Below the pieces are notes generated by a model, which ran no database searches, was not told the origin of the DNA, and worked only from the letters and a program-made list of their open reading frames with translations. Shown in pieces: positions 1,887-48,547 of a stretch of DNA of 64,000 bases; the stretch's first letter is position 1, and each line of letters starts with the position of its first letter. The stretch is from Escherichia coli (GTDB lineage: Bacteria; Pseudomonadota; Gammaproteobacteria; Enterobacterales; Enterobacteriaceae): assembly GCF_013315695.1 (NCBI RefSeq), contig NZ_CP054353.1; one strand, written 5' to 3'. The position numbers and the translations under genes are program-made.

Positions 1887-3387
<1,501 letters not shown>

Positions 3388-7447: not shown

Positions 7448-7454
7448 GGAGTCG

Positions 7455-9754: not shown

Positions 9755-10516
<762 letters not shown>

Positions 10517-10562
10517 GTAAGGTGGTAAGGTCACTCCCCAGGGGGCGTGACCTTATCCATAT

Positions 10563-13270: not shown

Positions 13271-13546
13271 AGATTACGTACCTCCCGGTTTTGCCGGGAG
13301 TTACATGGCCTGAAATTTTGTATTTCATTGCTACATTCATTCAAACCACCTGTAACAAAAAGCTGCCTTTGACGATCTATTGCTATAAATAAGTGAACTT
13401 TTTTCTTTAATTGTTTATTTATTTTAAAATGGTTAAGTTTTGCTAATCATGATGAGCTATTTTTGATAGTTCATCCTGTGGCGTCGCTCTTAAACTTATA
13501 TTGTAAATGACTTAGATTTAAATGAGATAATAATTTTGTTAACAAT

Positions 13547-14362: not shown

Positions 14363-14365
14363 GAA

Positions 14366-15757: not shown

Positions 15758-15889
15758 CCCCGTTCTCCTGATCTTATTATTTCTATCACTGCGTAGCAGT
15801 CATAGTGTTGGCGCAAGATTAACAGAACTGTGAGCTGGCTCTTATATTCAAATGGAATTGCTTATTCCAGAAAGGTGATTTTTGCCTTT

Positions 15890-31957: not shown

Positions 31958-32215
31958 TCACATCGCCGGAAGTGGCAGCGACATCTGCGCATCACCACGG
32001 TGTGACGCTGGCAGGCTCTGCCACGGAATATCCGGTGAAGTACCACCGCTGCGCTTTACGGTGAGTTTTTCGAAGCTCTCCAGCGTCGAGAAGGAGAGAC
32101 TGCATTCGGGATTGTTGCACTGGTAGAGCTTCTGCCGGACAGTGCGTGAGTCGTTCGCGGCGCGGCTTGTGCGGGTGCGCGTGCTCGCACCACAAAAAGG
32201 ACACGGAAAAGACAT
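31958..32215 (-). CDS. ogr: Ogr/Delta-type zinc-finger late-gene activator
   Basis: 85-aa ORF with CPFC...C...NPEC zinc-finger spacing, adjacent to gene D as in P2. Confidence 0.75.
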   Translation of the reverse strand: MSFPCPFCGASTRTRTSRAANDSRTVRQKLYQCNNPECSLSFSTLESFEKLTVKRSGGTSPDIPWQSLPASHRGDAQMSLPLPAM

Positions 32216-32267
32216 GACGGAGACCTCCTTTTTTTCATGAAGGTGAATCTCCGTGATTTTATTCCTG

Positions 32268-33383: not shown

Positions 33384-33545
33384 CGCAATTTCTCCGTCTG
33401 TGTCTTCGTCCGGCGAAATACTCCCACGCGCACGGAGGCGCTGTAATCCTGCGTATGTTGTCGGAGAACGGTGAGAACAGGCAGCGCGTGAATGCGGGGC
33501 TGTTTTTCGGGAGGATGTCGCCACACAAAACACCAGGAGGTGCTC

Positions 33546-34727
33546 ATGAGTGAAACACGCTTTCACGGTGCACGCGTCAAAGAAAACACCGACCTTGTGA
33601 CCGCGATTAATGACATTGATTCCAGTGTCATCGGTATCGTGGCCACGGCGGACGATGCAGACAGCGACGCGTTCCCGTTAAACAAACCCGTATTGATCAC
33701 CCGCGTGGCGAATGTGCTGGGTAAGGCAGGCACAACAGGCACGCTGTACAAAACGCTCAAGGCGATTTCCGACCAGACCAGCCCGAAGGTTATCGTGGTG
33801 CGTGTGGCTGAAGCCGGAGAGGAAGGTGAGACACAGGATCAGCTTGTCATCGGTGGCTCGCAGGCTGACGGCAGCTACACGGGCATGTATGCCCTGCTGG
33901 TTGCTGAACAGGACGAGAGCATTGGTTACCGCCCGCGCATTCTGGCGGCTCCCGGCCTGGATACCGAAGCAGTCACATCCGCCCTGTGCGTCATTGCGGA
34001 CAAGCTCCGCGCCTTTGTGTACGCCGGATGTAACGGGTGCGACACGATGGCGGAGGCAATCACTTACCGTGCGAAGTTCTCCGCGCGTGAGCTGATGCTG
34101 CTGTGGCCTGACTTCATTGCCTACAACCCGGTGAGCGGAAATAACGAAACATTTCCGGCAGCGGCGTATGCGTGCGGGTTGCGTGCGCGGATTGACAGTG
34201 AACAGGGCTGGCACAAGTCACTGTCCAACGTGGCGCTGAAAAATGTTCTCGGTATGTCGCAGCAGGTGTTCTGGTCGTTGCAGGCCGAAGACAGTGATGC
34301 GAACAACCTGAACAACAAGGAAATCACCACGATTATTCGCCGTAACGGCTTCCGCTTCTGGGGGAACCGTACTGCCGAAACCAGCGACTACATCTTTGAG
34401 GTGTACACGCGCACAGCGCAGATTCTGGCAGATACCATCGCTGAGGCGCAGTTCGAAACCATTGACGAACCGCTGACCCCGGCGAACGTGAAGGACGTGA
34501 TTAGCGCCATCCGCGCAAAACTCAACGCCCTGGTCACCGCCGGGAAACTCATCGGTGCGGAGTGCTGGTATGACGTGCTGGACAACGGCACGACGGATTT
34601 GCGTCAGGGGCGCGTGCGCATCCGCTACAAGTACACGCCAGTGCCGCCGATGGAAGATCTGACGCTGTATCAGACCTTCACGGATGAGTATTTCGACTCC
34701 GCTTTTGCAACGCTGGGAGGTGCGTAA
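33546..34727 (+). CDS. Contractile tail sheath protein (gpFI)
   Basis: From ATG 33546 with AGGAGG RBS; FPLNKPVLIT, GFRFWGNRT and YTPVPPMEDLTL motifs match P2 FI. Confidence 0.9.
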   Translation: MSETRFHGARVKENTDLVTAINDIDSSVIGIVATADDADSDAFPLNKPVLITRVANVLGKAGTTGTLYKTLKAISDQTSPKVIVVRVAEAGEEGETQDQLVIGGSQADGSYTGMYALLVAEQDESIGYRPRILAAPGLDTEAVTSALCVIADKLRAFVYAGCNGCDTMAEAITYRAKFSARELMLLWPDFIAYNPVSGNNETFPAAAYACGLRARIDSEQGWHKSLSNVALKNVLGMSQQVFWSLQAEDSDANNLNNKEITTIIRRNGFRFWGNRTAETSDYIFEVYTRTAQILADTIAEAQFETIDEPLTPANVKDVISAIRAKLNALVTAGKLIGAECWYDVLDNGTTDLRQGRVRIRYKYTPVPPMEDLTLYQTFTDEYFDSAFATLGGA

Positions 34728-35243
34728 ATGGCTGTACCACGTTACGTTCGCCAGTTCACGCTGTTTGTGAACGGCAAAAACAAAATCGGCACGGTGACAG
34801 GCGTCACTCTGCCCAAGCTGACCCGAAAAACCGAAGCCTATCGCGGTGGCGGGATGCTGGGTGCGGTGCATATTGACCTCGGACTGGATGACGGCGCACT
34901 GGATGCCTCGTTCACCACCGGTGGGGTTGAAAAAGAGCTGCTCCAGGAATACGCCACTGACATTAACGAAGTGGCGCTGCGCTTTGTGGGTGAGCTGTTC
35001 ACCGATGGTGAGGAAAGTCAGCTCCTTGAGGTGGAGATGCGCGGACGCATCACGGAAATCGACCGTGGCGAAACCAAACAGGGCGACACCACACAGTACA
35101 CCTTCGCCGTCAAAAACACCTACTACAAGGAGTCGGTGGATGACAGTGATGTGACAGAAATCGACCTGCTGAACTTCATCTACAAAAAAGACGGCCAGAA
35201 CGTCTTTGGTGACCGCGTGAGTTCGGCGCTCGGTCTGAACTGA
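34728..35243 (+). CDS. Tail tube protein (gpFII)
   Basis: 171-aa ORF immediately after FI, P2 FII-like. Confidence 0.9.
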   Translation: MAVPRYVRQFTLFVNGKNKIGTVTGVTLPKLTRKTEAYRGGGMLGAVHIDLGLDDGALDASFTTGGVEKELLQEYATDINEVALRFVGELFTDGEESQLLEVEMRGRITEIDRGETKQGDTTQYTFAVKNTYYKESVDDSDVTEIDLLNFIYKKDGQNVFGDRVSSALGLN

Positions 35244-35289
35244 CAGCATTAACAGGGCGGCACATTGTGCCGCCACAGGAGAAAGAAAA

Positions 35290-35673
35290 ATGGCAGCAAA
35301 GAAAGATGACATCATGAACAGCGAAATCGTCGCAGGTGACACCACCACTGAAAACATCGATGTGGCAGAGGAAAAAACGGGGGTGAAGTTATCCTGCCCG
35401 GTGGTGCGTGGCGAACGCGTTATTGACTACGTGGAGATTGGCGAGGAAATCCGTCAGGCAGGCTCGTTGCGCGGGCTGTCTCTGATTGAGGTGCTGAACC
35501 TCAAAACGGACCCGATGATGACGCTGCTTTCGCGCGTGACCGCACCACGCCTGAAGCTGGCAGAAATCCAGACACTGGACACCGGTGATTTCGTGGCGCT
35601 GGCGACTATGGCTGCGAATTTTTTTGCTCCCACGGAGTCTGCGAAACCGTCCGTGGCGGTGATGGAAGCGTAA
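35290..35673 (+). CDS. Tail assembly chaperone gpE
   Basis: 127-aa ORF between the tube and tape-measure genes; contains a T7G slippery run near its 3' end. Confidence 0.7.
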   Translation: MAAKKDDIMNSEIVAGDTTTENIDVAEEKTGVKLSCPVVRGERVIDYVEIGEEIRQAGSLRGLSLIEVLNLKTDPMMTLLSRVTAPRLKLAEIQTLDTGDFVALATMAANFFAPTESAKPSVAVMEA

Positions 35674-35837
35674 TCACGCTGGCGAAGTTCGACAACGTTG
35701 AAGAACTGGTCGCTGATATAGCAGTCGTGTTTAACTGGTCGCCCGGCGAGATATTCTCAATGCCTCTCGTCGAGGTGATGAGCTGGCGTGAGCGGGCGGC
35801 GCAACGTAGCGGAGTCCGCAACAGTGAAATCCCTTGA
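35290..35837 (+). CDS. gpE+E' fusion produced by programmed -1 frameshift
   Basis: TTTTTTTG at 35619-35626; the -1 frame is open from the slip site to TGA at 35835-35837, overlapping the start of T, as in P2 E/E'. Confidence 0.55.
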
Positions 35838-38800
35838 TATTCGTGTCAGCTTTGGCGCAATTGACCGGCTGACATGCCCGACCGAAAACGCCCGCCGTCA
35901 GGTGGGCGCTCTCACTGAATCCCTTCAGAAGACGCAGAACAACATACAGGCGCTCGACAGACAGTCGAAGGTGTTCGATCGTGCCGCCGGAAATCTCAGT
36001 AAATACCGCGAACAGATTGCCCGCGCGGAGCAGAGGCTCGCCGGGCTGCGAAAGGCAGAGCAGAACGGTAACATCCTCTCCGAAAAGCAGCGCGAAACGC
36101 TGGCGGCACTCTCCGCGCGGCTTGAGCGCCTGAACGAGCTGCGCACGCGCGAGCGCGAAAAACTCCAGGCGGCGGCTGGCGAAATGCGTAAACATGGCAT
36201 TCTGCTTTCCGGCAGCAGCCGCACCATCGAAAGTGCCGTTCGTCGCACGCAGCAGTACAACGAGCAGCTCGAGCGTGAACGGCAGGCTCTGGCTCGCGTG
36301 ACGCAGGCACAGAGCCGCTATGAGGCCGCGAAGGCACAGGCGGAAAAACTGCGCAACACAGGGGCTGTGGCGATGGCGGCGGGTACAGGCGGCCTGTATG
36401 CGGCGCAGCGCATGATGGCTCCGGCGATGGAGTCCGAACAGCACGGTGCGGTCATCGCAGCCGGTTCGGGGGAAGGCGCACAGGATGGCGCACGTTACAC
36501 CCACATCATCCGTAACATACAGGCTGACGGTCTCGCTGATTTTGCCGGTGCTGCGGAGGCCGTGAGTGCGGTACGCAGCACGCTCGGCGCACTGGGCGAC
36601 ACCGGTGACAGGGAGCTTGAGCGCATCAGCCGTCGTGCGCTGGATATGCGGACCGTCTTTGGTGTTGATGTGCCGCAGAGCATTCAGGCCGCTGCCATCA
36701 TGATGAAGAACGGGCTGGCCGCCAGCAGTGACGAGGCTACTAACCTGATGACGGCAGGGATGCAGCGCATGTCCGCTGAAATGCGCGATGAACTGCCGGA
36801 AATTCTGCATGAGTATTCCACCCACTTCCGCAACATGGGCTTCACCGGCAGCGAGACAATGAGTCTGCTGGTTGAGATGGCAAAGCAGGGCAAGTTTGCG
36901 CTGGACAAAACCGGCGATGCCGTGAAGGAGTTCAGTATCCGTGGTTCGGATATGTCGAAATCCAGTGTTTCAGCGTATGAGACACTTGGCCTGAATGCCG
37001 AACGGGTGTCTGCTGCCATTGCTCAGGGGGGCAGTACCGCACGCCAGGCGATGCAGGTGACCGCCCGTGCACTGCTGGCCATCCGTGACCCGGCAGAGCG
37101 GGCGAACACGGCCATTGCGTTATTCGGCACCCCCGTTGAAGACCTTTCCGTTGACCAGATCCCGCAGTTCCTGAGGGCGCTGGCTGATGTTCGTGACAAT
37201 CTGGGCGATGTCACCGGTGTGGCAGACCGCATGGGGCAGACGCTGCGCGGTAATCTCTCCGGCGATATTCAGGCGCTGAGTGGTGCGTTCTCAGGGCTAC
37301 GCACGGACATCTTCGGTACTGTGACCGAGGATTTGCGCGGGCTGGTTCAGACGGTGAGCGCGTGGGTGACCCGGATGCGCGAATGGGTCGGAGAGCATCA
37401 GGCGCTGGTCAGGGTGCTGGTACTGGCGGGCGGGAGTGTTCTGGCGCTGTCTTCTACGTTCGGTGCGCTGTCACTGACGCTCGGGCTGATTGCGGGGCCG
37501 CTGGCAAAACTGCAACTGGGACTGGGGCTGCTGACGGGGGGCGGCGGCATTGGTGGTGCTGTCCGGCTTGTGTCTGCGATGGCGCTGCGCCTGACGGGGC
37601 TGCCTGCGCTGTGGGGGCTGGTCACGGGGGCGGTGTCGGTACTGGGTGGTGCAGTGGGGGCGCTGTTCAGCCCGGTCGGGCTGATTGTTGCCGCCCTGGT
37701 GGGCGGCGCGGTTCTGGTGTGGAAATACTGGGATCAGATCAGTGCGTTTTTTTCCGGCTTTTTTGCCGGAGTGTGGGAGGCGCTGCAACCGCTGCGGGAA
37801 GCCTTTGCGTCGCTGGCTCCGGTGTTCGGGCTGATTGGCGATGGCATCAAAGCCGTGTGGGAATGGTTCACCCGCCTGCTTGAACCTGCAAACGCCTCAA
37901 AAGAGACACTCGACAAATGCACCAGCGCCGGGGAGTCGTTCGGGAAAACGCTGGGGTGGGTCATTCAGAACATTGTGCTGGGGCCGCTGACACTGCTTCT
38001 TGATGGCCTCGGCACAGTGCTGAAGTGGCTGGGTGTTATCCCGGATGGCATCAGGGAAGCGCAGAAGGAGACGCAAAAACTCCAGGAGAGCGCCGCAAAA
38101 CAGGCCACACAAAAAGCGCCGGTTGCGTGGGAGTGGGATCCTGCACAGAAAAAAATGGTGCAGAAAACATGGTCGTGGTCATCAGATGCAGCGGAAAACA
38201 ACGGTGACAATAAACCCGCAATACCTGCCCCTGCGGTTCCCGGAGAGGTGAAGGGAACGTCAGACAATCCGGTCGGCAAACCCGGTAGTAAATCCCCGCT
38301 GGATGAGGCATGGTTCCGGCAGGGGATACAGAAAACCGCCAGCAACACCGGCGGGCTGCTTGAGGAAACCAAAAAACGTACTGGTCCCGGCGATATTGTT
38401 TTCAAAAACCTGCCCGGACCCGAAATCATTCACGGCGAGTGGAAAGCACCGCAGGTTATCCGGACAGTGCAGGCGGTATCGGCGGGCGGAGGACTGGCGG
38501 ATGCGCTGACAACGCTCTGGCAGAAACTCACCGGAAGACAGACTGCTTCACCCGTTCCGGTCGTGAATATTCCTGCGCCAGTGGAGAGAGTGGCACGTCA
38601 GGTATCCACGCTGCCACAGCCGCAGCACAACGAGGCAAATACAGAACTGGTTGCCGGTATTCAGCGCGTGCATGAGGCTGTGAACAGTCCGGGGGGAGAG
38701 ACGGTATCGCCTCCACCTGTGGTGAACGTTCTGATGCCAGCAGTGAATGTTCCTGCGCCAGTGGTGAGTGTGGCGCGTCAGGTATCCACGCTGCCGCAGC

Positions 38801-39288
38801 ACAACGAGGCAAATACAGAACTGGTTGCCGGTATTCAGCGTGTGCATGAGGCGGTGAACAGTCCGGGTGGAGAGACGGTATCGCCTCCACCTGTGGTGAA
38901 CGTTCTGATGCCAGCAGTGAATGTTCCTGCGCCAGTGGTGAGCGTGGCCCGTCAGGTATCCACGCTGCCGCAGCACAACGAGGCAAATACAGAGCTGGCT
39001 GCCGGTATTCAGCGCGTGCGTGAGGCTGTGAACAGTCCGGGTGGAGATGTGGCTTTATCTGTTCCTGTTGCGGAGGTTATCCGTCCACCGCTGCGACCGG
39101 AGTCCGTCAAAAAAGAAACCGCGCCACAAACGCAGGCTGCGGTATTTTCCGGTGAGATACACGTGCATCTGCACAACGTCAACACGCAGAATCCGCGTGA
39201 ACTGGCAAAACTGGTTGGCGAGGCTGTCCGCGAAGAGATGCGCAGACAGGTGCGTACAGGCATGAACAGCTTCCGTGACAGGGACTAA
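35788..39288 (+). CDS. Tail tape measure protein (gpT)
   Basis: 1166-aa ORF with a coiled-coil N-terminal half, Gly-rich TM segments and C-terminal tandem repeats; the track start at 35788 is a GTG and the true start is uncertain. Confidence 0.85.
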   Translation: MSGRRNVAESATVKSLDIRVSFGAIDRLTCPTENARRQVGALTESLQKTQNNIQALDRQSKVFDRAAGNLSKYREQIARAEQRLAGLRKAEQNGNILSEKQRETLAALSARLERLNELRTREREKLQAAAGEMRKHGILLSGSSRTIESAVRRTQQYNEQLERERQALARVTQAQSRYEAAKAQAEKLRNTGAVAMAAGTGGLYAAQRMMAPAMESEQHGAVIAAGSGEGAQDGARYTHIIRNIQADGLADFAGAAEAVSAVRSTLGALGDTGDRELERISRRALDMRTVFGVDVPQSIQAAAIMMKNGLAASSDEATNLMTAGMQRMSAEMRDELPEILHEYSTHFRNMGFTGSETMSLLVEMAKQGKFALDKTGDAVKEFSIRGSDMSKSSVSAYETLGLNAERVSAAIAQGGSTARQAMQVTARALLAIRDPAERANTAIALFGTPVEDLSVDQIPQFLRALADVRDNLGDVTGVADRMGQTLRGNLSGDIQALSGAFSGLRTDIFGTVTEDLRGLVQTVSAWVTRMREWVGEHQALVRVLVLAGGSVLALSSTFGALSLTLGLIAGPLAKLQLGLGLLTGGGGIGGAVRLVSAMALRLTGLPALWGLVTGAVSVLGGAVGALFSPVGLIVAALVGGAVLVWKYWDQISAFFSGFFAGVWEALQPLREAFASLAPVFGLIGDGIKAVWEWFTRLLEPANASKETLDKCTSAGESFGKTLGWVIQNIVLGPLTLLLDGLGTVLKWLGVIPDGIREAQKETQKLQESAAKQATQKAPVAWEWDPAQKKMVQKTWSWSSDAAENNGDNKPAIPAPAVPGEVKGTSDNPVGKPGSKSPLDEAWFRQGIQKTASNTGGLLEETKKRTGPGDIVFKNLPGPEIIHGEWKAPQVIRTVQAVSAGGGLADALTTLWQKLTGRQTASPVPVVNIPAPVERVARQVSTLPQPQHNEANTELVAGIQRVHEAVNSPGGETVSPPPVVNVLMPAVNVPAPVVSVARQVSTLPQHNEANTELVAGIQRVHEAVNSPGGETVSPPPVVNVLMPAVNVPAPVVSVARQVSTLPQHNEANTELAAGIQRVREAVNSPGGDVALSVPVAEVIRPPLRPESVKKETAPQTQAAVFSGEIHVHLHNVNTQNPRELAKLVGEAVREEMRRQVRTGMNSFRDRD
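38555..39052 (+). repeat. Tandem repeats of 180/174 nt inside the tape-measure gene (about 2.8 copies)
   Basis: gtgaat(a/g)ttcctgcgccagtgg... recurs at 38563, 38743 and 38917; encoded peptide PAPVxxVARQVSTLPQ...HNEANTELVAGIQRVHEAVNSPGGETVSPPPVVNVLMPAVNV repeats in frame. Confidence 0.7.
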
Positions 39289-39760
39289 AGGAGACGCAAT
39301 TATGATGATGATTTTTGGCATGTTTGTGTTTGAACTGAAAACGCTGCCGCATCAACAGATTCAACAAAACAAAACGTGGCGGCATGTGAAAAATGAGCGA
39401 ATCAACCGTTCTGCGGCCTGGCAGTATATTGGCGCAGGTGACGACCAGATCACGCTGTCCGGTCTGCTGTACCCGGAAATTACCGGCGGTGAGGTGTCGC
39501 TGACACTGCTGAACACCCAGGCCTACACCGGATGTCCCTGGCCGCTGATTGATGGTACGGGGCAGATTTACGGAATGTACGTGATTACGGGATTACAGAC
39601 CACCCGCTCCGAACTGGATCGCTACGGGAAGGCAAAAAAGATTGAGTTCTCCATCAGCTTTCAGCGGTGTGATGAGGATATGCGGGAGAGGCTTCAGTCT
39701 GCTTCTGCAGGTGATTTACTGAACACGCTTAAAGACAAAATGGCGATAGCGGCATTCTGA
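39275..39760 (+). CDS. Tail protein U (gpU family)
   Basis: 161-aa ORF following T with an MMMIFGMFVFELKT segment; the actual start may be the internal ATG at 39302. Confidence 0.8.
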   Translation: MTGTKGDAIMMMIFGMFVFELKTLPHQQIQQNKTWRHVKNERINRSAAWQYIGAGDDQITLSGLLYPEITGGEVSLTLLNTQAYTGCPWPLIDGTGQIYGMYVITGLQTTRSELDRYGKAKKIEFSISFQRCDEDMRERLQSASAGDLLNTLKDKMAIAAF

Positions 39761-39770
39761 ATAAAAAAAG

Positions 39771-39795
39771 AGGGAGTGTAAAAAGCACTCCCTTA
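39771..39795 (-). terminator. Intrinsic terminator, minus-strand orientation, abutting the U stop codon
   Basis: Reverse complement reads gggagtg-cttttta-cactccc followed by tctttttttat. Confidence 0.45.
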
Positions 39796-40140
39796 TTGCC
39801 TTCATGGAAAAGAAGCAAATGTTGTCAATACATTCTGACTATATATAAATCGCCCGATGAAGGCAATGGTGATGTTCGGGAAATAAAAAAGCCCTCACAA
39901 AGAGGGCGGCATGCATTGTGTGAAGATTTAATTTTTCTGCTTGCAGGGGGATTATATTGAACGGTATTCATTCAATGCAATATTTTTAATTGTCATTATC
40001 ATTAATGAAAATGTTTCTTGTGTTTTTGTTGCTCTGATTACAATCCCGTTTATTACTGTGTCTTTGCGGCAAAAAAAAAGCCCGCACGGGGCGGGCAAAG
40101 AATGTTTGCATGTGTAGAACAGTGCGGGATTATAAATATA

Positions 40141-40560
40141 TTATGCGTTCTGAAAAGTCCCCTTTGATGGAGATTCAGGCCATACCAGCGCATTATAACA
40201 ATCTTTATTCATCACGGAAGTGAACGTCAACTGCTGAAGTTCCCTAATATATTCAATCCACGTAGCCAACCTTCCCTTGTCTGCATTGCTGATGGTGCCG
40301 GGCAATAACTCAGATTGCCAGATTCTGATCCTCTCTTTTGCCTCCGGCAGCAGGGGATTTCGTTGTCATTCTGCTTTAGCCTGCCACTTTTCAGGTGGCA
40401 GCACATGACGAACAATATTTTCATCATCAAATATCCAGTTACCTGAGTCATCAGCACGTTGGTTAGCGTTAATATCAGAAGTATTAACAACACTAAAACC
40501 GACATGATTAAGTGTTGATGCCTCTCTGGTAATGGTGACAATAATATTATTTCGTTGTAA
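40141..40560 (-). pseudogene. Degenerate ORF of unknown family with an in-frame TGA and no start codon
   Basis: Minus-strand frame reads ...NWIFDDENIVRHVLPPEKWQAKAE*QRNPLLPEAKERIRIWQSELLPGTISNADKGRLATWIEYIRELQQLTFTSVMNKDCYNALVWPESPSKGTFQNA*, protein-like on both sides of the internal stop. Confidence 0.4.
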
Positions 40561-40770
40561 ATCATTTTGATTTTATCTGGTCGAAAGGTCCCTGCTTCGT
40601 TATGTCAGTTTTATCGCCTTCAGAGGAAACCAGATTACTTTGTGCTTCTTTTTCTAACACATACAGTCCCGGAGTTAATATTGCCTGTTTTATGTTCTTG
40701 AGTGCATCATATTAATCTCTTACATATTGTATCTGGTGAAATTTATAATTTTCTGAAGCTGCCTGAAAGA

Positions 40771-40870
40771 ATTGAGTTTCCTGCAGGCTTTCAATGGTGT
40801 GATGAGGATATGTGGGAGAAACTCCAGTCTGCTCCTGCAGGGGGGGCTTACTGAACACTATCAAAGACAA
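40771..40870 (+). repeat. Diverged direct copy of the 3' end of gene U
   Basis: attgagtttcctgcaggctttcaatggtgtgatgaggatatgtgggagaaactccagtctgctcctgcag...ctgaacac...aaagacaa parallels U 39641-39740 at about 80 percent identity. Confidence 0.6.
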
Positions 40871-40903
40871 ATCTTCGTCGTTGATCGCATTCCCTTAACC
40901 TGA

Positions 40904-40938
40904 CGCCACCACCCCACACAGATGACGGGGTGGTGGCG
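40904..40938. terminator. Perfect 12-bp inverted repeat hairpin between convergent tail operons
   Basis: cgccaccacccc ... ggggtggtggcg, located between the rightward FI-U unit and the leftward H unit. Confidence 0.5.
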
Positions 40939-40943
40939 TGATT

Positions 40944-41240
40944 TCACCAGTAACTAACCAGCAGCCAGAACAACAGGCATATTGCCACTGGTGCAGCAAA
41001 ATCCATCAGGCTTCCGGCATCCCACACGCGCGGATCAAAACCACCCCACCAGGGCATGTTAATTCGTTTCCCTTTCCCGAATTTTTCAATCCAGCGATAT
41101 TCTGCCTGGGTGTGTTCACGCGCAATGAAGAACGAGCAACCGGCTATCGCTCCGTAAACCCAGTTTCCCGTAAGAATGCCAGCCAGTACCTGCGCAGCCA
41201 CGGCACAAAGTGCATGAAGGACAGGCGTTATATCCATCAC
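40944..41240 (-). CDS. Hypothetical small membrane protein downstream of the tail fibre gene
   Basis: 98-aa ORF with hydrophobic N- and C-terminal segments (MMDITPVLHALCAVAAQVLAGILTG...AICLLFWLLVSYW); no family recognised. Confidence 0.5.
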   Translation of the reverse strand: MMDITPVLHALCAVAAQVLAGILTGNWVYGAIAGCSFFIAREHTQAEYRWIEKFGKGKRINMPWWGGFDPRVWDAGSLMDFAAPVAICLLFWLLVSYW

Positions 41241-41249
41241 TCCCTCCCT

Positions 41250-41528
41250 TCAGCTCCATTCCCGAAGCGGTGCTTCCAGCTCCACCACATAATCAGAGAA
41301 CACAGAAACATCAAACGTATCATCAAGAATACGAATGTTGACAAAATAACCGTCATTCCGGATACAGACAGGTTCTCCCTCTTCATTTTCCCCTGTTTCT
41401 GTATAGGTGAAACCAATTTCATCGACTAACAGTTTGTTCTGGAGGTCTTCATTTTCCTCCCAGCCAAGAGATGACAGGAGGGCTTTAAACTGCTGTTTGT
41501 CATGAAACTTCAAAGTCAAATCTTTCAT
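41250..41528 (-). CDS. Hypothetical acidic protein downstream of the tail fibre gene
   Basis: 92-aa ORF overlapping the H stop by 4 nt; strongly acidic; no family recognised; it occupies the position of a tail fibre assembly protein. Confidence 0.5.
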   Translation of the reverse strand: MKDLTLKFHDKQQFKALLSSLGWEENEDLQNKLLVDEIGFTYTETGENEEGEPVCIRNDGYFVNIRILDDTFDVSVFSDYVVELEAPLREWS

Positions 41529-43306
41529 ATTGCCTCTCTTAATTGCCTGTCATTTAATTCTTTATGCCATATGCGGAAATTACGAATGTGACCAAACAGA
41601 TGTCGTTCTCCAGTACTCGTTCGCCCTCCAATACGGATAATTGCGGAGTTCTGAATATATGACCATGTGGTTTTTGTTTCGCCGGATAACCGTCCGTTAC
41701 TGACTGAGCATGTAGACTGATCTGACTTTACTCGCATCCCTATAACCATTTTTTCAAGTGATGCGTTTTCGTTTACCCGCATGTTAGCCCCGCCTATATC
41801 GCAATAAGGAAATCCGTCGTAATCCGTCGAACGACCGAATCCAAGAATAATTTCCTCTCCAGTTTGATGACCACTGGTATTAAGAACACGCGGTGCTGCA
41901 TTTGGCGTTTTATACCAGTTCTTATGTACCTCACAAAGAACAGTAAAAGGAGGATTATAAAGATTATTCTTAACCGGAACTGTCACAATATCACTTGCAC
42001 GTGTTGCTGGTGTTGCACCCGATATAATAAATGATGATGCGCAGGGGCCATTTTCAACCTGAGGGGTGGACAGGAAAACATAATCTCCTGATTCAACGAC
42101 ACCACCTTCTTTCGGAGTGTATTGTATTGCCGATGTTATGTAGGACTCATCAATTGCCTGAATCGTTGCCTCTGCAAAAATCCAGCCGGTAACCTCATCT
42201 TTGTTAACTCGGGCAGTGATCCTGTCGGCAGCTCCTCCTGTGATTTTAACTGATAAAGATCGCGTATTAACAATGGCATATCCAAGGTTAGATGATGTGT
42301 TGCCATCGTAAGATTCAAACCTGATCCTTAACATGAGTTCCAGATCAGTTTTAAATCTGCACGATGTCGTCACGCACTTATTATCGCCTGAAACATCGAC
42401 GGCTCCGGTTACTGCAACTGATGCCATGTTAACAGGCAGGGACTGCCCAATCAGAGAATCGTTACAGACGAACTTTCCATAGGTAAAACCAGAACTGTCC
42501 GTCCCGGTTTCGGGAACATCCATATTTACCGACTTGCCCCAGTTGACCGGGGTTTCCGAATTGAGCATGTAGTTTGTTCTTTGCCCTTCAATAAGCAGTC
42601 CATCGCGTTCAAATCGCGGCTCATTAATTTCAGCTATTTTCAGTTCACCGGATTTATTGATATAGGTTGCCGTTGATGCGCGACTGAAACTAACCTGTTT
42701 ATCACTGGCAACCTGAACCACATCGTCACCAATGGTGATTTTTTTATAGCCCGGTGCGAACCCCGTAAGCATATCCAGTGAATCGTTAAACGGTATCCAC
42801 ACATCAGGCAGCGGCGGTACAGACTCCTTTTCCTGCGCAACATATTCTTCAACATAGGCGCGGGTGGCGAGCACGACAGAGGGATCAACTTTCAGTTCGA
42901 CAGACGAAGCACTGGAAACCACAACAATCATGCGAATCGTCTGCGTGCGCCCGCTTCCCTCGGTGAGTACAGGCTTGTAGGTTTCGGGGCAGTTCGCCAC
43001 GGCAATCATCACGCCGTCGCTGTCAAAAAGCCCAATCTCGCGGATCCAGAACCCCCCTTTATCTTCCGGGATAATCATCTCGGCGATAAGCTGGCTGGCA
43101 TCAGACGCGCTGATGCTCAGTTGATTCAATGGGGCGCTGTATACCGTGTTCACCAGATTTTCCATGGAAGCCTCCGGTTCCGGCAGGCTGCCGCCGCCAT
43201 CCCCCAGTTTCATGGTGGTGATGGATATTTTCGAGCCGCTGGCCACCGCCTTTGCCAGACGGGCGGCACCCTTGTCAGTCAGAACAGAAAAATATTTTAC
43301 AGTCAT
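41525..43306 (-). CDS. Tail fibre protein (gpH family) with divergent lower-GC C-terminal module
   Basis: N-terminus matches P2 H (ITTMKLGDGGG, GFWIREIGLFD, AVANCPETYKPVLTEGSG, RMIVVVSSASSVEL); the C-terminal two thirds are unrelated to P2 H. Confidence 0.8.
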   Translation of the reverse strand: MTVKYFSVLTDKGAARLAKAVASGSKISITTMKLGDGGGSLPEPEASMENLVNTVYSAPLNQLSISASDASQLIAEMIIPEDKGGFWIREIGLFDSDGVMIAVANCPETYKPVLTEGSGRTQTIRMIVVVSSASSVELKVDPSVVLATRAYVEEYVAQEKESVPPLPDVWIPFNDSLDMLTGFAPGYKKITIGDDVVQVASDKQVSFSRASTATYINKSGELKIAEINEPRFERDGLLIEGQRTNYMLNSETPVNWGKSVNMDVPETGTDSSGFTYGKFVCNDSLIGQSLPVNMASVAVTGAVDVSGDNKCVTTSCRFKTDLELMLRIRFESYDGNTSSNLGYAIVNTRSLSVKITGGAADRITARVNKDEVTGWIFAEATIQAIDESYITSAIQYTPKEGGVVESGDYVFLSTPQVENGPCASSFIISGATPATRASDIVTVPVKNNLYNPPFTVLCEVHKNWYKTPNAAPRVLNTSGHQTGEEIILGFGRSTDYDGFPYCDIGGANMRVNENASLEKMVIGMRVKSDQSTCSVSNGRLSGETKTTWSYIQNSAIIRIGGRTSTGERHLFGHIRNFRIWHKELNDRQLREAI

Positions 43307-44079
43307 GAAAAAATCCTCAAAGAATCCTCCAGAAATACCACTGATGCTGTCAGGGTTCCGGTTGTGGCGGTCAGTTGCATCACCGCCTGTGGCTCCACGG
43401 TCACCGCATCATCGCCCGTAACCTGTAATCCCATGACAATCCCCGCATCGACAGATACCGACGGTGTCGGCGGGTAAATGGTGAGCATGTCGCCGTCAAA
43501 GAAAGCCGGAGATGCCCGGAACACCGAAACAGTCTCAACACCGGCAGAAGCGGCTGGCCAGATTGTTGTTTCACTGCCGTCGTGCATGCCGGAAAACACA
43601 CGTGCGACTCCCTGCGTATCCAGCATAATGTTCAGCGAGGCAAGGTGGCGGCTGACCGGACGGGCATCGTCGATCAGTCGTGTCAGCTCGGAGTACGTTT
43701 CCTCTGTGATACCCGCGTCCTGCACGCCAATATCAATGCGGAACGTGCCGCGCGGGTCGCCGTTCTGCCACCACTCCGTCACGTTAATGACATAGCCAAA
43801 GGGTTCAACCACACGCCTGATGGCGCTGATGGTTCCCTTATGGCGGTGGATTGCCCAGGCATCACGGATCACCTGGCGCTTTGTTTCTTCCGTCCAGTCA
43901 CGATCCCACCTGTCCACGGACAGCGCCCACGCCAGATAAGGCAGCAGGGCTGCCGGGCAGGTGTCAGGATCCCAGAGCTGGTTAAGGCTGACAGGTAATG
44001 CTGACAACCGGGCGGTTCCCCGCTCCACGCAGCGCATGAAATCGCTGGCTGAAGGGGGGAGAAGTGACGGTTCACTCAT
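43303..44079 (-). CDS. Baseplate protein gpI
   Basis: NQLWDPDTCPAALLPYLAWALSVDRWD and TISAIRRVVEPFGYVINVTEWW motifs match P2 gpI; start taken at the internal Met 4 nt after the J stop. Confidence 0.85.
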   Translation of the reverse strand: MSEPSLLPPSASDFMRCVERGTARLSALPVSLNQLWDPDTCPAALLPYLAWALSVDRWDRDWTEETKRQVIRDAWAIHRHKGTISAIRRVVEPFGYVINVTEWWQNGDPRGTFRIDIGVQDAGITEETYSELTRLIDDARPVSRHLASLNIMLDTQGVARVFSGMHDGSETTIWPAASAGVETVSVFRASPAFFDGDMLTIYPPTPSVSVDAGIVMGLQVTGDDAVTVEPQAVMQLTATTGTLTASVVFLEDSLRIFS

Positions 44080-44968
44080 TGGTTCCCCCTGTGCTGACCG
44101 TGAACGATGTGCAGTACGCTGACTGCACATCACTGATAACAATATTCTGTGCGGGGCTGGTCAGTTCCACGCGCTGAACGCCCTGAACATGCAGTGCGGC
44201 CATGATGGCGGAGAGCGCGACATCGCGACCGATTTTGCCCTGTTCGGCAAGCCAGGTTTCCAGATTGTTTCTGGCGGCATTCAGGATGGGTTCCGACTCC
44301 GGCCCCGGATAAAAGTAAAGCCGGGCATCAATCTGATACCGTATGATTTCTGCGCTCTGCACCGTCAGACGGTCACCGACCGGGCGAACGTCTTCGGCAT
44401 TCAGCGCATTTCTGACCGTTGTCAGGAGTTCTTCGGTCGCCGTGCCGTCGCCTTCTGTGGACAACACTGTCACCACCACTTCCGCCGGTGCGGGGCTGGT
44501 TGCGCGCGCGTCCGCCACCTGACCGCTGGCACTGCGGGCAAAATATTCATACGCCCCGGTGGGACCGGCCACGCTGAGGCCATCAAATGCAGACTGCGCA
44601 CGCAGCCGCAGGGCGGAGTCGCTTTCCATGACGGCCTCCGTGGTGTCCATGGCCGGTGTGATGACCAGCCGCGCGGTGTTCATGTTGGCAGCGAGGTTGT
44701 CCAGGTCATCACCTGTGGAATGGCTCAGCATACAGGCCGCTGCGCCCTCATTAATGCGCTGGCGAAGCAGCAGTTCACGCAGCGCGAAAGCCTGGGCAAT
44801 GACCGTGAGCGGTTCGGACTCCAACGCCATGGCTGACCGGATGGCAGCCTGCTGTGTCTGTGGAAATGACGTAATGATGTCTTCTTTCACTTCCGCTAGG
44901 ATGACTTCAAAATCCGGCGTTTCAATAATCTGTGGTGTCGGCAGTTCCGACAGGTCAACGGCTGGCAT
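44072..44968 (-). CDS. Baseplate assembly protein gpJ
   Basis: 298-aa ORF, N-terminal MPAVDLSELPTPQIIE and C-terminal VQGVQRVEL...TGG match P2 J. Confidence 0.9.
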   Translation of the reverse strand: MPAVDLSELPTPQIIETPDFEVILAEVKEDIITSFPQTQQAAIRSAMALESEPLTVIAQAFALRELLLRQRINEGAAACMLSHSTGDDLDNLAANMNTARLVITPAMDTTEAVMESDSALRLRAQSAFDGLSVAGPTGAYEYFARSASGQVADARATSPAPAEVVVTVLSTEGDGTATEELLTTVRNALNAEDVRPVGDRLTVQSAEIIRYQIDARLYFYPGPESEPILNAARNNLETWLAEQGKIGRDVALSAIMAALHVQGVQRVELTSPAQNIVISDVQSAYCTSFTVSTGGTNE

Positions 44969-45320
44969 TGTCGCTCCTGAGTGTCAGTGTGTTCTGTACG
45001 GTTTCCAGGCTTTCTGTCAGTGTGCCGGTGAGGGTGATAACGGCTTTTCCGCCCGCCTCCCACTGAATGTCAACGGCATTCAGGGCGATGCGTGGCTCCC
45101 ACTGTGTCAGGGCAATCACCACGGCGCTCATGCACTGAAGGCGCGTGGTGGCATTCATCGGTGCATCCAGCAAATCCGGCAGCAGGCTGCCGTATTCCCG
45201 GCGCATCACCCGGCTGGCGAGCGGTGTTAACAGAATATCCCTCACGCTGTTCCACAGATGGTCCGTGTCGCTGAGCGTGCCGGTGGCCTCGGGGTTCATC
45301 CCCAGAAAACGGGCACTCAC
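44955..45320 (-). CDS. Baseplate protein gpW
   Basis: 121-aa ORF, ARFLGMN...RVMRREYGSLLPDLLD as in P2 W. Confidence 0.85.
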   Translation of the reverse strand: MSARFLGMNPEATGTLSDTDHLWNSVRDILLTPLASRVMRREYGSLLPDLLDAPMNATTRLQCMSAVVIALTQWEPRIALNAVDIQWEAGGKAVITLTGTLTESLETVQNTLTLRSDNASR

Positions 45321-45898
45321 TGCGGGCCTCCTGTGCTGTCACCGCCGCTCTTCACGCCACTGTGTTTGTGCGTGTGCAGCGTCACACCGTTTGAGGTGAA
45401 ATCACCGCCGCTGTGCGAGATACTGCCACTCATGGTTCCGCCTTCTGTCACCTCAATCGTTGTCGTCTTCAGATGGTTTGTGCAGGTGACGGTGGGGGTA
45501 TCCAGCGTCACGCCTGTTCCGGCCTGAATGGTGGCAGTTTTGATTCCGCTGGCGCTCAGTGCGCCAGCGTCCGCATCGTAGCGGAACACCGCGCCGTCAG
45601 GCGCTGTAACCACGATTTCCGTCAGGCTGCTGCCGGGCGCCGGATGTTCGCTGCTCCAGAGACTGCCGATGACGGACGCGGTCGCGGGGTCGCCACCGAT
45701 GCAGGCAATCATGACCTGTTCGCCCACGGCAGGCGGCAGCCAGACGCTGAACGCGCCCGCGCGTGGTGTGTTCCAGCGCAGCCAGTCGGTTTCCAGCTCT
45801 CCGCTGCGCACGCGAACGCGCCACGTTGTTTCGTCCACGGCAAAAATCACGCCCGTGCGGATGATATTTGCAAGCAGTCGCATGATTTCCGCTGTCAT
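45317..45898 (-). CDS. Baseplate spike protein gpV
   Basis: 193-aa ORF with the C-terminal GVTLHTHKH..GG.TGGP motif of P2 V. Confidence 0.85.
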   Translation of the reverse strand: MTAEIMRLLANIIRTGVIFAVDETTWRVRVRSGELETDWLRWNTPRAGAFSVWLPPAVGEQVMIACIGGDPATASVIGSLWSSEHPAPGSSLTEIVVTAPDGAVFRYDADAGALSASGIKTATIQAGTGVTLDTPTVTCTNHLKTTTIEVTEGGTMSGSISHSGGDFTSNGVTLHTHKHSGVKSGGDSTGGPQ

Positions 45899-46533
45899 CG
45901 TGCTGCACTCCCCAGGGAACGGATAATCGCGTCACGCATCCGGCGTTCGTCGGCTGCGGTCACACCCAGCAGTTCACGCACCGGGTAGGTGGTCATCACG
46001 CCCGGTGTCACCTCGTCGCGTAACCCCGCCTGATGCACGCGGGCAATCCGCGCAGCCAGGCCATCAAAGCCCACCACAGCGCCTTCCGCATCTGAGCGCA
46101 TTTTTAACCAGCGATATGTGCGAAGACGCGCGAACATCGGCGTGCTTTTCTTGCTGGTCTGGCGGGCAGACATGGACGATACAGCGAGGTATCGTTCAAT
46201 ATCATCGCGGTAAAACGTCCTCAGTGCGCCGCCACGGTCAGGGTCGCGCCCGATGATGGCGCGGCCTTTCCGGTAACGTTTGTGCCCCCACTGGCGCAGC
46301 GTGCGGACCTCGCCGTTCCAGACAAACTTCACCTCCCGGCGGGTGTGCATTACCTGCTGTTTTCGCGCCGGATACGGCGAACCGTCTGCGTTCTTCTGCG
46401 TACGGATACGCGCCTGCTGGCTCTGGCGCAGCGCCTGCCCGACAGCCCTCGCCGTGCGTGCACGTCCGGCGGTGGAAAGTCCGTTCAGGATGTCGCGGAA
46501 AACCGCGTCCGGGTCATGCGTCGTCGTGTTCAT
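45895..46533 (-). CDS. Phage virion morphogenesis / tail completion protein (gpS-like)
   Basis: 212-aa basic ORF in the S position between R and V; the family assignment rests on position and is weaker than for its neighbours. Confidence 0.65.
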   Translation of the reverse strand: MNTTTHDPDAVFRDILNGLSTAGRARTARAVGQALRQSQQARIRTQKNADGSPYPARKQQVMHTRREVKFVWNGEVRTLRQWGHKRYRKGRAIIGRDPDRGGALRTFYRDDIERYLAVSSMSARQTSKKSTPMFARLRTYRWLKMRSDAEGAVVGFDGLAARIARVHQAGLRDEVTPGVMTTYPVRELLGVTAADERRMRDAIIRSLGSAAR

Positions 46534-46996
46534 CCGTCAAATCCTTAAAGGTCACATCCTCAACAATCAGCTCTCCCCAGGCTCCTGTCAGTGCGGCAGG
46601 CGGGCGGGGTTCCGGCAGGTGCACCGGATACAGTTCCCCCTGTTCATTGCGACAGACTTTCACGCGCTCGCGCACGGGAATTTCCAGTAACAGGTCGGTG
46701 CTGTCGTCGTCATTGACGGCAACGGAAAACTTAACGTCCTTGTTTTTCTCCGGGTTGAGCAGCAAATCCGGCTGGTTGTGCATGAGCCAGACAATCAGCG
46801 GCAGCATCAGCTCGTCGATGTGTCCCGGAAAATCCATGACGAAGGCCACGAGCGTGTAACGGTAGACAAACGTCGGGGTTTCACCCGTGGTCTCAATACT
46901 TCCGCTTTCTGCAAACACGGTGAGTTTTTCCGGATTCGCGCGACACCACCGGGATGAGGCGGTGAGGGCTTCGCGCAGACGGTTCATTTTCAGCAT
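46514..46996 (-). CDS. Tail completion protein gpR
   Basis: 160-aa ORF, MLKMNRLREALTAS...NQPDLL... resembles P2 R. Confidence 0.8.
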   Translation of the reverse strand: MLKMNRLREALTASSRWCRANPEKLTVFAESGSIETTGETPTFVYRYTLVAFVMDFPGHIDELMLPLIVWLMHNQPDLLLNPEKNKDVKFSVAVNDDDSTDLLLEIPVRERVKVCRNEQGELYPVHLPEPRPPAALTGAWGELIVEDVTFKDLTDEHDDA

Positions 46997-47005
46997 GACT
47001 TCTCC

Positions 47006-47299
47006 TTACGGTCGCATCCGGCGTTGTTGTTCGGTTGCTTTAATGGCTGCCTTGTCAGCGTTGCAGCTCTCCAGTGCGTCCAGCAGCCGGTCACTCCAGA
47101 CGGCCAGTCCGCCCCACGTCAGCGGACGGGGCAGGGACGGCACCGGCGTTGGCTGTGTCAGACTTTCCGGCAGCGGTGCGTGCTGCGTCTGAGTGACCAC
47201 GACGGGGCGCGGCGCGCTGTTGCAGGCGGTCAGCAACAGCGGCAGGCACAGCAGCAGCCGCGCACGGATTTTCCCGGAGTGTGTTGCGTATCTCTTCAC
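47006..47299 (-). CDS. Outer-membrane spanin lipoprotein (LysC/Rz1-like), start inside the i-spanin gene
   Basis: Alternate frame overlapping lysB; lipobox LLTAC followed by a Pro-rich region; the GTG start at 47299 is inferred. Confidence 0.55.
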   Translation of the reverse strand: MKRYATHSGKIRARLLLCLPLLLTACNSAPRPVVVTQTQHAPLPESLTQPTPVPSLPRPLTWGGLAVWSDRLLDALESCNADKAAIKATEQQRRMRP

Positions 47300-47537
47300 G
47301 GCGTTTTTCTCCCTCCTGATTCCGGTGCTGCTCTGCGGCGCGGACCTGCGCCAGCAGGTCGCTGATGCCCCGGAGTTCCGCATGAAGTGCATCCACGGCG
47401 GCATTTGTTCCCGCCAGCGCCTGTTCGTGATATTCCCGGCGCGCCCGTTCATGCCCTGCCTGCCAGGCCAGACGCAGTGACACCAGATACAGCGCCCCCG
47501 AAAACAGGGCGACGACGGCGGCGGTGGTCAGCCTCAT
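47091..47537 (-). CDS. Inner-membrane spanin (LysB/Rz-like)
   Basis: N-terminal TM helix (MRLTTAAVVALFSGALYLVSL) and a coiled-coil periplasmic domain; ATGA overlap with the endolysin gene. Confidence 0.6.
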   Translation of the reverse strand: MRLTTAAVVALFSGALYLVSLRLAWQAGHERARREYHEQALAGTNAAVDALHAELRGISDLLAQVRAAEQHRNQEGEKRREEIRNTLRENPCAAAAVPAAVADRLQQRAAPRRGHSDAARTAAGKSDTANAGAVPAPSADVGRTGRLE

Positions 47538-48076
47538 TTCTGTTTCTCCACATCCCGCAGACACCAGGCGCGAAAATCGCTGCGGCGGTTAACCAGTCCC
47601 TGACTGCGCTTCCCGCCTGCATTCACAAAATCAGTGAGGCGGGCACACATCCGCGCCCAGTTATGCGCCTGTGCCTGTTTCCAGATGGTGGTGCGCTGGC
47701 GCTTACCGTTGCGGTCCCTGAACCACATCAGACCGGAGCACCCCAGATTGAAGGCTGCATCCGTCATCGCCTCGAAGGCCGACTGCGGCATGGCTGCCCC
47801 CTGAAAATTCTGGTTAATACAGCTCTCCGCCCGCTGCATGTCATTCACCCAGCGACGGGCCACCTCCTGCTCGCTGTACAGGTGTTTCTGTACGTTCCCC
47901 GTGGAGCCGCAGCCCACGGTGGCAACACCCGCGATGTCCGTGTAGGGTGTGGCGCGGCAGTCTTCCCACGTGGCAATTTTTATCTGTGCCTCCTGTGAGG
48001 TGCGCAGTGCTTCAGGAGCCAGCGAGACACCCAGCGCCACAATCACGGCGGCGGCATATCGCTTAATGTTTTTCAT
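47534..48076 (-). CDS. Endolysin (lysozyme-type, gpK-like) with N-terminal signal-anchor
   Basis: MKNIKRYAAAVIVALGVSLA then a lysozyme-like domain in the K position. Confidence 0.8.
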   Translation of the reverse strand: MKNIKRYAAAVIVALGVSLAPEALRTSQEAQIKIATWEDCRATPYTDIAGVATVGCGSTGNVQKHLYSEQEVARRWVNDMQRAESCINQNFQGAAMPQSAFEAMTDAAFNLGCSGLMWFRDRNGKRQRTTIWKQAQAHNWARMCARLTDFVNAGGKRSQGLVNRRSDFRAWCLRDVEKQK

Positions 48077-48356
48077 CGTTATCCCGTTGCAGTGCGGCAA
48101 GCGCCCGTTGTTCACTTTCATGAAGCCCGCGCGTTCCGGCCTGTGCCAGAATCTGTGCAATCAGCGCATTGCGGCGGACCTGCGCACGCTCCATGCGGCG
48201 ACGGTGAAGCCAGCCCTGAAAGAGTGAAAGCGCACCCAGCAGCAGCCCGGCCAGCGCGATTTTTTCGCTGATGGTCATCGCGCCAATCGTGACCGCAGAG
48301 ACGGAGGCGGCGAAGGCGATGTGGTCGTAAATACTGCGAAAAAAACCTAATCCCAT
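48063..48356 (-). CDS. Holin (gpY-like)
   Basis: 97 aa with two TM segments and a charged C-terminus, immediately upstream of the endolysin gene; start taken at the internal Met. Confidence 0.6.
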   Translation of the reverse strand: MGLGFFRSIYDHIAFAASVSAVTIGAMTISEKIALAGLLLGALSLFQGWLHRRRMERAQVRRNALIAQILAQAGTRGLHESEQRALAALQRDNDEKH

Positions 48357-48547
48357 AACTGCACCGTCTCCCGTGTTTTTTTCTCTTCCTGCTCCGGTAA
48401 TTCCACTTCCTGTCCGGCCTCCAGAAAAATCTGTCCGCACAGCCCCGGATTGGCGGCCAGCACCTTTTCGGTCACGCCCTGCGTTGTGCCGTAGTGCCGG
48501 AAGCACAGCAGGTCAACGGTGTCGTCCTGTAATGCCTTCACCTTCAT
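48347..48547 (-). CDS. Tail protein gpX
   Basis: MKVKALQDDTVDLLCFRHYGTTQGVTEKVLAANPGL matches P2 X. Confidence 0.75.
   Translation of the reverse strand: MKVKALQDDTVDLLCFRHYGTTQGVTEKVLAANPGLCGQIFLEAGQEVELPEQEEKKTRETVQLWD

Follow-up and report, generated by a model that had tools for sequence, protein, structure and literature searches.

In phage P2 the tail fibre gene H lies after the baseplate gene I, and the gene immediately downstream of it, G, encodes a member of the Tfa (tail fibre assembly) family (PF02413), to which lambda Tfa and Mu U also belong. In the lambdoid phage 21 (OL657228) the side tail fibre gene stf (CPT_21_22) is followed by two small genes, CPT_21_23 and CPT_21_24, the second of which is annotated as a 'putative membrane protein'. 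Here we consider a locus that resembles both, carried by a P2-family prophage within a 64,000-nucleotide (nt) stretch of Escherichia coli DNA (assembly GCF_013315695.1, contig NZ_CP054353.1), the whole of which is called the window below. As in P2, a fibre with a homologous N-terminal domain is encoded after gpI and has another gene immediately downstream; as in phage 21, the order is that of a fibre and two small genes, with equally tight intergenic spacing. The open reading frames (ORFs) lie on the minus strand, exactly where the initial annotation had placed them, and encode a fibre of 593 amino acids (aa; 43306–41525), an acidic, cytoplasmic alpha/beta protein of 92 aa (p92; 41250–41528) and a three-helix membrane protein of 97 or 98 aa (p98; 40944–41240). 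The fibre is a P2 H-type attachment domain fused to a distal module that circulates among the fibres of other phages. Our explanation of the locus as a whole, to which we give a probability of about 0.6, is that this chimeric fibre came with a swapped cassette in which p92 would be a helper of the fibre and p98 an accessory protein acting on the cell envelope.

The N-terminal, baseplate-attachment part of the fibre (aa 1–162; 42821–43306, minus strand) is delimited by Pfam, tblastn and GC content. The P2 H-type domain PF12571 matches aa 1–149 (expectation value (E) 1e-56), P2 H itself is 48.9% identical over aa 24–162 (tblastn), and the nearest relative of this part among phages is in Erwinia phage ENT90 (62%, tblastn). 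The alignment with P2 H does not extend past aa ~162, and the distal shaft and tip are not H-like; the initial annotation had given the H-like portion as the first third of the protein, which is right as to the N-terminus but too generous, the match covering only the first 27%. All of the H-type PHROGs are confined to aa 1–164, and PHROG 1419 covers aa 148–593 (E 6e-214). What follows the attachment domain (aa ~163–593; 41525–42820, minus strand) is an imported distal receptor-binding module, delimited by this PHROG, by DNA homology to phage 21 and by GC content. The similarity to the phage 21 side tail fibre region starts at the stop codon of p98 and ends at nt ~42820, which corresponds to fibre aa ~162, with 87.6% identity over 40942–41642 (p98, p92 and the 3' end of the fibre gene) and 76% over 41886–42820. 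GC content is 0.52–0.57 over the 5' part of the fibre gene and falls to 0.41–0.48 from about 42750 downstream, so the earlier description of the distal part as unrelated to P2 H and AT-richer stands. The same module is present in T1-like, T5-like, 9g-like and Dhillonvirus fibres, as well as in lambdoid side fibres. Two findings that would speak against a chimera were looked for, an alignment with P2 H running past aa ~165 and an absence of the module from other phage families, and neither occurred.

A sister prophage with the same backbone, in E. coli strain 135, has a 1079-aa H and a 187-aa Tfa at this position. Similarity between the two prophages ends at 40443 and resumes at 43609, and the divergent block holds two scars, both downstream of p98. 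One is a tfa pseudogene (40551–40144, minus strand), found by tblastn with the strain-135 Tfa and corresponding to its aa 54–187 (63% identity, E 1e-56); the first 53 codons are missing, an in-frame stop replaces Ser113, and a weak Caudo_TAP match remains. The other is a duplicate of the 3' end of the tail gene gpU, 32 codons long (40765–40860, plus strand), which matches aa 121–152 of the window's own gpU (59% identity, E 5e-9, tblastn) and the gpU end of relatives (blastn). This duplicate is a recombination scar that was brought in with the cassette. In the lambdoid phage 2G7b, too, only tfa fragments remain downstream of the same cassette. Replacement of the fibre cassette, with tfa reduced to a pseudogene, is thus real and well supported, and the host-range cassette swap put forward at the outset is confirmed by the junction with the phage 21 module at nt ~42820, by the H and Tfa of strain 135 and by the tfa and gpU scars. 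The distal module arrived as a three-gene cassette, displacing the distal part of the ancestral H and the Tfa chaperone. The accompanying statement that the small genes stand in place of the assembly gene needs amending: they do lie directly after the fibre gene, but tfa persists as a pseudogene further downstream.

The distal module is clearly homologous, by profile comparison, to a glycan-binding domain of gene transfer agent (GTA) head-spike fibres. A profile made from 13 members of the family matches the Rhodobacter capsulatus GTA (RcGTA) head-spike fibre Rcc01080 (PDB 6tb9) with E 4.6e-31 over aa ~186–445, and the baseplate proteins in PDB 8env and 9b45 at about 1e-10; NCBIfam NF048003 (GTA_spike_fiber) is matched over aa 238–437 with 47.1 bits against a cut-off of 36 (E 3.9e-12). 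On these two grounds the RcGTA-like sub-domain is placed at aa ~186–445 (41972–42751, minus strand). Rcc01080 binds capsular polysaccharide in binding assays and has been called lectin-like (PMC10218006). Following this sub-domain, a ConA/LamG-like jelly roll is probable at the C-terminus (aa ~465–593; 41525–41914, minus strand). A lectin or jelly-roll ending had been proposed by the initial annotation, and the proposal holds in part: Laminin_G_3 (PF13385) scores 39.2 bits on a homologous fibre (L105), above the cut-off of 27.6, but only 19.2 bits on the window fibre itself (aa 537–588, E 0.0015), below it. The last ~130 residues also give weak profile matches to pentraxin and to a sialidase carbohydrate-binding module. 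Compared with nine phages, the module is a mosaic, with a conserved frame at aa 164–250 (68–93% identity) and aa 551–593 (45–77%) and variable segments at aa 251–400 and 451–550, where identity goes down to 15–20%. This is the pattern that would be expected of a lectin scaffold with changing binding surfaces, and the likeliest ligand of the fibre is a polysaccharide of the cell surface, for example O-antigen or capsule. In phage AKFV33 the homologous ORF137 is a virion protein by mass spectrometry (PMC3326045).

The genes of the cassette are tightly packed. The end of gpI overlaps the start of the fibre gene by 4 nt; the fibre gene ends in ATATGA, its stop codon sharing an ATGA overlap with the start codon of p92; and the p92 stop (TGA) is followed after 12 nt by an ATG at 41237, preceded by a GGGAGGGAG ribosome-binding site. 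This ATG is the probable start of p98, giving 97 aa, rather than the ORF start at 41240. No promoter-like site was found between the fibre gene and p98. Directly 3' of the p98 stop lies a GC-rich inverted repeat (ccaccacccc...ggggtggtgg; 40907–40937, strand unassigned), recognised on reading the sequence, which likely marks the end of the transcription unit despite having no T-run; the terminator scan did not call it.

The cassette is widespread and its P2-type setting is rare. The region from 40900 to 43400 is matched, whole or in part, in 1821 of 5426 complete E. coli genomes and in 221 phage records, while the P2-type context was found in 3 of the 5426 genomes and in 2 of 80 IMG/VR loci; one IMG/VR contig is 99.8% identical to the window over 39000–45000. 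Beyond Escherichia, profile searches found a homologue of the fibre module, a p92-like protein and p98 together in Comamonas, Pantoea and Chelativorans prophages, the order in Chelativorans being fibre, p98, p92-like. A reading based on tblastn, by which p98 loci outside Escherichia carry neither the fibre module nor p92, was dropped after these searches found both in the three genera. The E. coli p92 and the remote p92-like group are related with an hhalign probability of 74% (E 2.9e-5), and PHROG 18574, cross-hitting hidden Markov models and the intermediates of one alignment (A6) link the two groups. The fibre module, p92 and p98 have thus travelled together across bacterial classes, each also occurring without the others. 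One IMG/VR contig (L136, 802–5288) has two consecutive pairs of a fibre module and a p92-like gene (802–2988 with 2988–3272, and 3282–4607 with 4540–4890), then a single p98 (4890–5288); in sequence, its p92-like proteins stand midway between the type of E. coli and that of Comamonas.

Both small genes had been described as unrecognised, which does not hold, since each belongs to a large PHROG family annotated without a function; that neither is a tail fibre assembly gene does hold, no Tfa or Caudo_TAP match being found for either in Pfam, NCBIfam or PHROG. p92 matches PHROG 1361 over positions 1–91 of 92 (E 4e-42). It has an isoelectric point of 4.16, with 21 acidic and 8 basic residues, and no signal sequence, and its AlphaFold model (predicted local distance difference test (pLDDT) 89) shows a beta-alpha-alpha-beta-beta fold whose structural neighbours are only uncharacterised phage proteins. 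Searches of Pfam, NCBIfam and PADLOC gave no match to p92, and sequence searches of the PDB with p92 and p98 were empty at E up to 10. An exhaustive single-sequence search yields 55 clusters of homologues and a profile search 324, all 'hypothetical', and tblastn finds p92 in 163 phage records, spanning lambdoids, T1-like Drexlerviridae, Dhillonvirus, Nonagvirus and T5-like phages. In each of the nine phage loci inspected, virulent ones included, p92 starts at or over the stop codon of a module-bearing fibre gene, and no intact Tfa gene was seen in any of them. Across 87 unique fibre/p92 pairs, the divergence of p92 follows that of the conserved frame of the fibre (rho 0.78 for aa 164–250 and 0.55 for aa 551–593), with rho of only 0.14–0.37 for the variable segments; an apparent tracking of the variable segment aa 251–400 among 10 phages (rho 0.63) did not hold in this larger set. 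We take p92 to be a partner of the conserved fibre scaffold, most likely as an assembly factor and possibly as a bound accessory or adaptor; it is translationally coupled to the fibre gene and so made in step with the fibre. That it is specifically a dedicated cytoplasmic assembly factor or fibre-bound accessory standing in for Tfa has, we judge, about an even chance.

p98 belongs to a larger and more dispersed family. It matches PHROG 1443 over positions 2–96 of 97 (E 1.5e-52), and its AlphaFold model (pLDDT 95) has helices at residues 5–24, 27–54 and 75–97. The family comprises 614 clusters, and 22 columns of its alignment (A1) are invariant. The invariant core consists of D3, H9, Q17, R41-E42, Q45-W50, R59, M62, W65-F68, W73, S77, D80 and P84, and p98 carries the invariant motif AREHTQAEYRW...MPWWGGFDPR.W. 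The conserved loop would be cytoplasmic by the positive-inside rule but periplasmic if the phage 21 record is followed, in which a note based on TMHMM gives two segments with both termini inside. The N-terminus has no lipobox, and Cys12 is not conserved in the same alignment. Matches to p98 occur in 73 phage records and cover 80% or more of its length in 56; the full-length coliphage copies that were checked are all in temperate-type genomes, so that at least 100 virulent phages with p92 have no p98. PhiR41_1, considered as a T5-like virulent carrier, was set aside, because its genome, circular and 108 kb long, encodes gpJ and ParA and is probably that of a phage-plasmid.

p98 is found directly after P22-type tailspikes, between tailspike and integrase; after pectate-lyase and TSP1/Gp66-type tailspikes and fibres with an S74 chaperone domain; and after a P2 H-type GDSL-esterase fibre and a gpJ-like protein, and it often overlaps the stop codon of the receptor-binding gene upstream. 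Its downstream neighbours are an integrase, umuDC-like cargo, host genes, lydB-darA or a holin-lysozyme-spanin cassette. p98 is best taken as a separate accessory gene that temperate phages carry just behind their last receptor-binding gene, irrespective of what kind of receptor-binding protein this encodes. Homologues with 51–58% identity also lie in chromosomal settings, in Aeromonas (L004, L088, L091–L093) and in sphingomonads (L120, L121). The Aeromonas homologues come from four species and a similar flanking gene suggests conserved synteny, with annotated neighbours at only one of these loci. In Aeromonas rivipollensis the gene lies between a pirin gene and a RIO1-like kinase gene, next to two lipid A acyltransferase genes; in two sphingomonads the homologue follows ligA.

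The role of p92 as a helper of the fibre has to be set against the possibility that it is a structural adaptor, or docking site, for a second, exchangeable fibre ('B') that has been lost here, leaving p92 as a leftover or in a reduced role. In KarlJaspers, tonn, JenP1, Ioannina, HMD-P4, AKFV33, IrisVonRoten and 2G7b (L125–L132) a fibre protein of 224–574 aa is encoded about 10 nt after p92, and all of these B proteins except that of Ioannina share an N-terminal M(A/V)T.T.IP.DITKLK and end in an endosialidase-type chaperone domain. The gap between p92 and p98 is 0.2–1.1 kb in 42 of 73 IMG/VR loci, mostly wide enough for a B gene. Yet an intact, conserved p92 is present without B in the window, in phage 21 and in 31 IMG/VR loci, which argues that p92 is maintained independently of B, and the Comamonas, Pantoea and Chelativorans cassettes lack B as well. 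We regard the adaptor reading as a minority possibility, about half as probable as the part of assembly factor or accessory. For the phages that do carry B, the arrangement suggests a branched fibre whose docking site is supplied by the first fibre or by p92; the B proteins themselves, that of Ioannina again excepted, have a variable middle. That either small ORF could be a chance frame or a decayed, functionless remnant, as their shortness and want of a Pfam domain might suggest, is contradicted by the conservation data: strong PHROG matches, hundreds of homologous clusters with invariant motifs, confident models, ribosome-binding sites, translational coupling and synteny across bacterial classes make this highly improbable.

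For p98, a role at the envelope competes with two other explanations. As a protein of about 100 aa with three hydrophobic helices, co-transcribed with late genes and often translationally coupled to them, it could be a late lytic membrane protein (for example a holin, antiholin or lysis-timing regulator). Acidovorax and Comamonas prophages do have the lysozyme gene immediately behind p98, and in a P1-like contig p98 precedes lydB. Against this, at locus L108 p98 is followed by a separate holin (PHROG 4237, E 1e-10) and then by lysozyme and spanin, and the window prophage has a separate P2-type lysis region near 47–48 kb. The invariant loop motif is untypical of holins, and the occurrence of p98 in non-phage settings of Aeromonas and sphingomonads fits lysis poorly. 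p98 as a holin proper was rejected: no holin family is matched in Pfam, PHROG or NCBIfam, the C-terminus ends inside the last helix with no charged tail, and in the window p98 is not beside the lysis genes. The broader late lytic role we consider improbable. A similarly low likelihood attaches to p92 and p98 forming a single two-part system, either for membrane-anchored fibre maturation or as an exclusion or immunity pair. In its favour, fibre module, p92-like protein and p98 recur as a trio among prophages of Gamma-, Beta- and Alphaproteobacteria. The 32 loci that have the two small genes side by side (12 or 15 nt apart) all keep the p98 ATG in frame with the p92 stop, and three metagenomic proteins of 194 aa are in-frame fusions in which the p92 stop is replaced by Cys, Trp or Arg (P0220, P0221 and P0222). 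These fusions come from single short metagenome contigs, however, and may be sequencing errors, and 25 of the 32 adjacent loci have a tight TAA stop for p92, on which ground programmed read-through of the p92 TGA into p98 was discarded as a general feature. At least 100 phage records have p92 without p98 (163 against 73 records), and p98 in turn is found behind a range of other receptor-binding proteins, and on chromosomes, where p92 is missing. The initial suggestion of a dedicated pair is thereby contradicted, p92 being found in virulent phages that lack p98, and p98 after unrelated tailspikes and fibres that lack p92.

An envelope-acting p98 would exclude superinfecting phages or change the cell surface. 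We put this forward tentatively, as the likeliest of the roles considered for p98 and still clearly short of an even chance. Several points weigh against the roles proposed for the two proteins. No annotated homologue supports either of them, and globular lectin domains may need no chaperone; the second fibre gene that follows p92 in many phages suggests an adaptor. For p98 there is no PADLOC match at E up to 1 and no Pfam family, hence none of exclusion proteins; the gene lacks a promoter-like site and in many cases is translationally coupled to late genes, a poor fit to expression in a lysogen; and the homologues in non-phage chromosomal settings suggest a general cellular activity more than a device for exclusion peculiar to phages. 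No search linked p92 or p98 to a characterised family, fold or paper, and both are uncharacterised in the two BASEL papers, the DT57C study, the tail-spike modelling and the AKFV33 and RcGTA papers.

As such, the swap is unremarkable, an instance of textbook tail-fibre modularity, in which a myovirus attachment domain has been joined, with clear scars, to a module otherwise found mostly on siphoviruses; the two small protein families are a modest lead. p92 stands beside this type of fibre in at least 163 sequenced phages, among them easily manipulated members of the BASEL collection, and p98 is found behind tailspikes and fibres of diverse kinds, its prophages belonging to more than one class of bacteria. 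Their roles, once known, would improve the annotation of host-range loci and would show which helper gene is needed together with the module when fibres are engineered for phage therapy or for tailocins; their study might also reveal a new prophage-encoded envelope function. As a more speculative extension, which taken as a whole we think rather unlikely, p98 could represent a widespread class, as yet unstudied, of small membrane proteins encoded by proteobacterial temperate phages directly after glycan-directed receptor-binding genes, whose invariant loop would act on a conserved envelope component, blocking superinfection or remodelling glycans, and which would have been borrowed from a cellular gene that persists in Aeromonas and sphingomonads; p92 would at the same time represent a class of chaperones or accessories for lectin-type fibres that is unrelated to Tfa.

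The prophage in which the cassette sits runs from ~32 kb of the window onward; positions 1–20000 are the katE-chb-ast chromosomal region of E. coli, 100% identical to strain MSB1_4I. On the plus strand are the genes for sheath, tube, tape measure (35788–39288) and gpU (39275–39760; PF06995, E 9e-40). Converging on the gpU side, the minus strand carries the lysis genes, R, S, V, W, J and I, and then fibre, p92 and p98; a related prophage in E. coli SWHEFF_58 is annotated with this arrangement too. The P2 gpI-type baseplate gene (43303–44142, minus strand) is identified by PF09684 (E 1e-52) and TIGR01634 (E 8.5e-58). Its ORF has 279 aa (about 258 when counted from the first ATG) and that of the strain-135 relative 177; Pfam Tail_P2_I covers only aa 28–163, and in the related prophage L001 the gpI equivalent is annotated as incomplete. 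Since similarity to the sister backbone stops inside gpI, at 43609, the exchange seems to have taken in the C-terminal extension of gpI along with the N-terminus of the fibre. An AT-rich spacer (39761–40140, GC 0.36–0.44) separates gpU from the tfa pseudogene; it contains three terminator-like hairpins on the minus strand (39771–39793, 39891–39907 and 40080–40096) and is kept at about 87% identity in 71 E. coli genomes. Within the tape measure gene, a 174-bp tandem repeat (38563–39047; 2.8 copies, 93% match) encodes a repeated unit of ~58 aa. Its copy number appears to be variable, because the tape measure gene of L001 is longer and matches the repeat five times, at intervals of 180 bp. The structural genes (~32000–48500) have a GC content of about 0.60, well above that typical of E. 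coli, and on this account the backbone probably comes from an enterobacterial lineage of higher GC; the imported cassette has 0.41–0.53.

Compared with P2 H and G, then, the locus differs in its distal fibre, which is unrelated, and in having tfa only as a pseudogene. p92 is encoded immediately downstream of the fibre, as are P2 G, lambda Tfa and Mu U, but it matches no profile of that family, and P2 G is twice its size and similar to it in neither sequence nor fold. The closest likeness is to phage 21 and to mEp460, ev207 and Perceval, which have the same type of lambdoid locus, the difference being that phage 21, a siphovirus, carries the module on a lambda Stf-type N-terminus, whereas in the window it is on a P2 H-type N-terminus and belongs to a contractile-tail baseplate. 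A homologous fibre module with a p92 overlapping its stop codon is also present in virulent siphoviruses, namely AKFV33 (ORF137/ORF136/ORF135, that is ltpA, a small ORF and ltpB), IrisVonRoten (bas32_0022–0024) and KarlJaspers (bas06_0037–0035); unlike the window, these have a second fibre gene after p92 and no p98. Rcc01080 (GhsB) shares with the window fibre the homologous beta-rich, capsule-binding domain, but it is a GTA head decoration of 325 aa with a short N-terminal peptide anchor and no P2 H domain.

For p98 the comparison is with genes that stand beside receptor-binding genes and protect the host or change its surface, such as cor, T5 llp, HK97 gp15, P22 sieA, P22 gtrABC and Sf6 oac. 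p98 has no sequence relationship to any of these and carries no lipoprotein signal; it also differs in that its translation is often coupled to that of a late gene, with no separate promoter, and in having homologues on chromosomes, outside phages. What it shares with the group is the slot after a tailspike or fibre, its nature as a membrane protein and the occurrence of its full-length coliphage copies in temperate phages.

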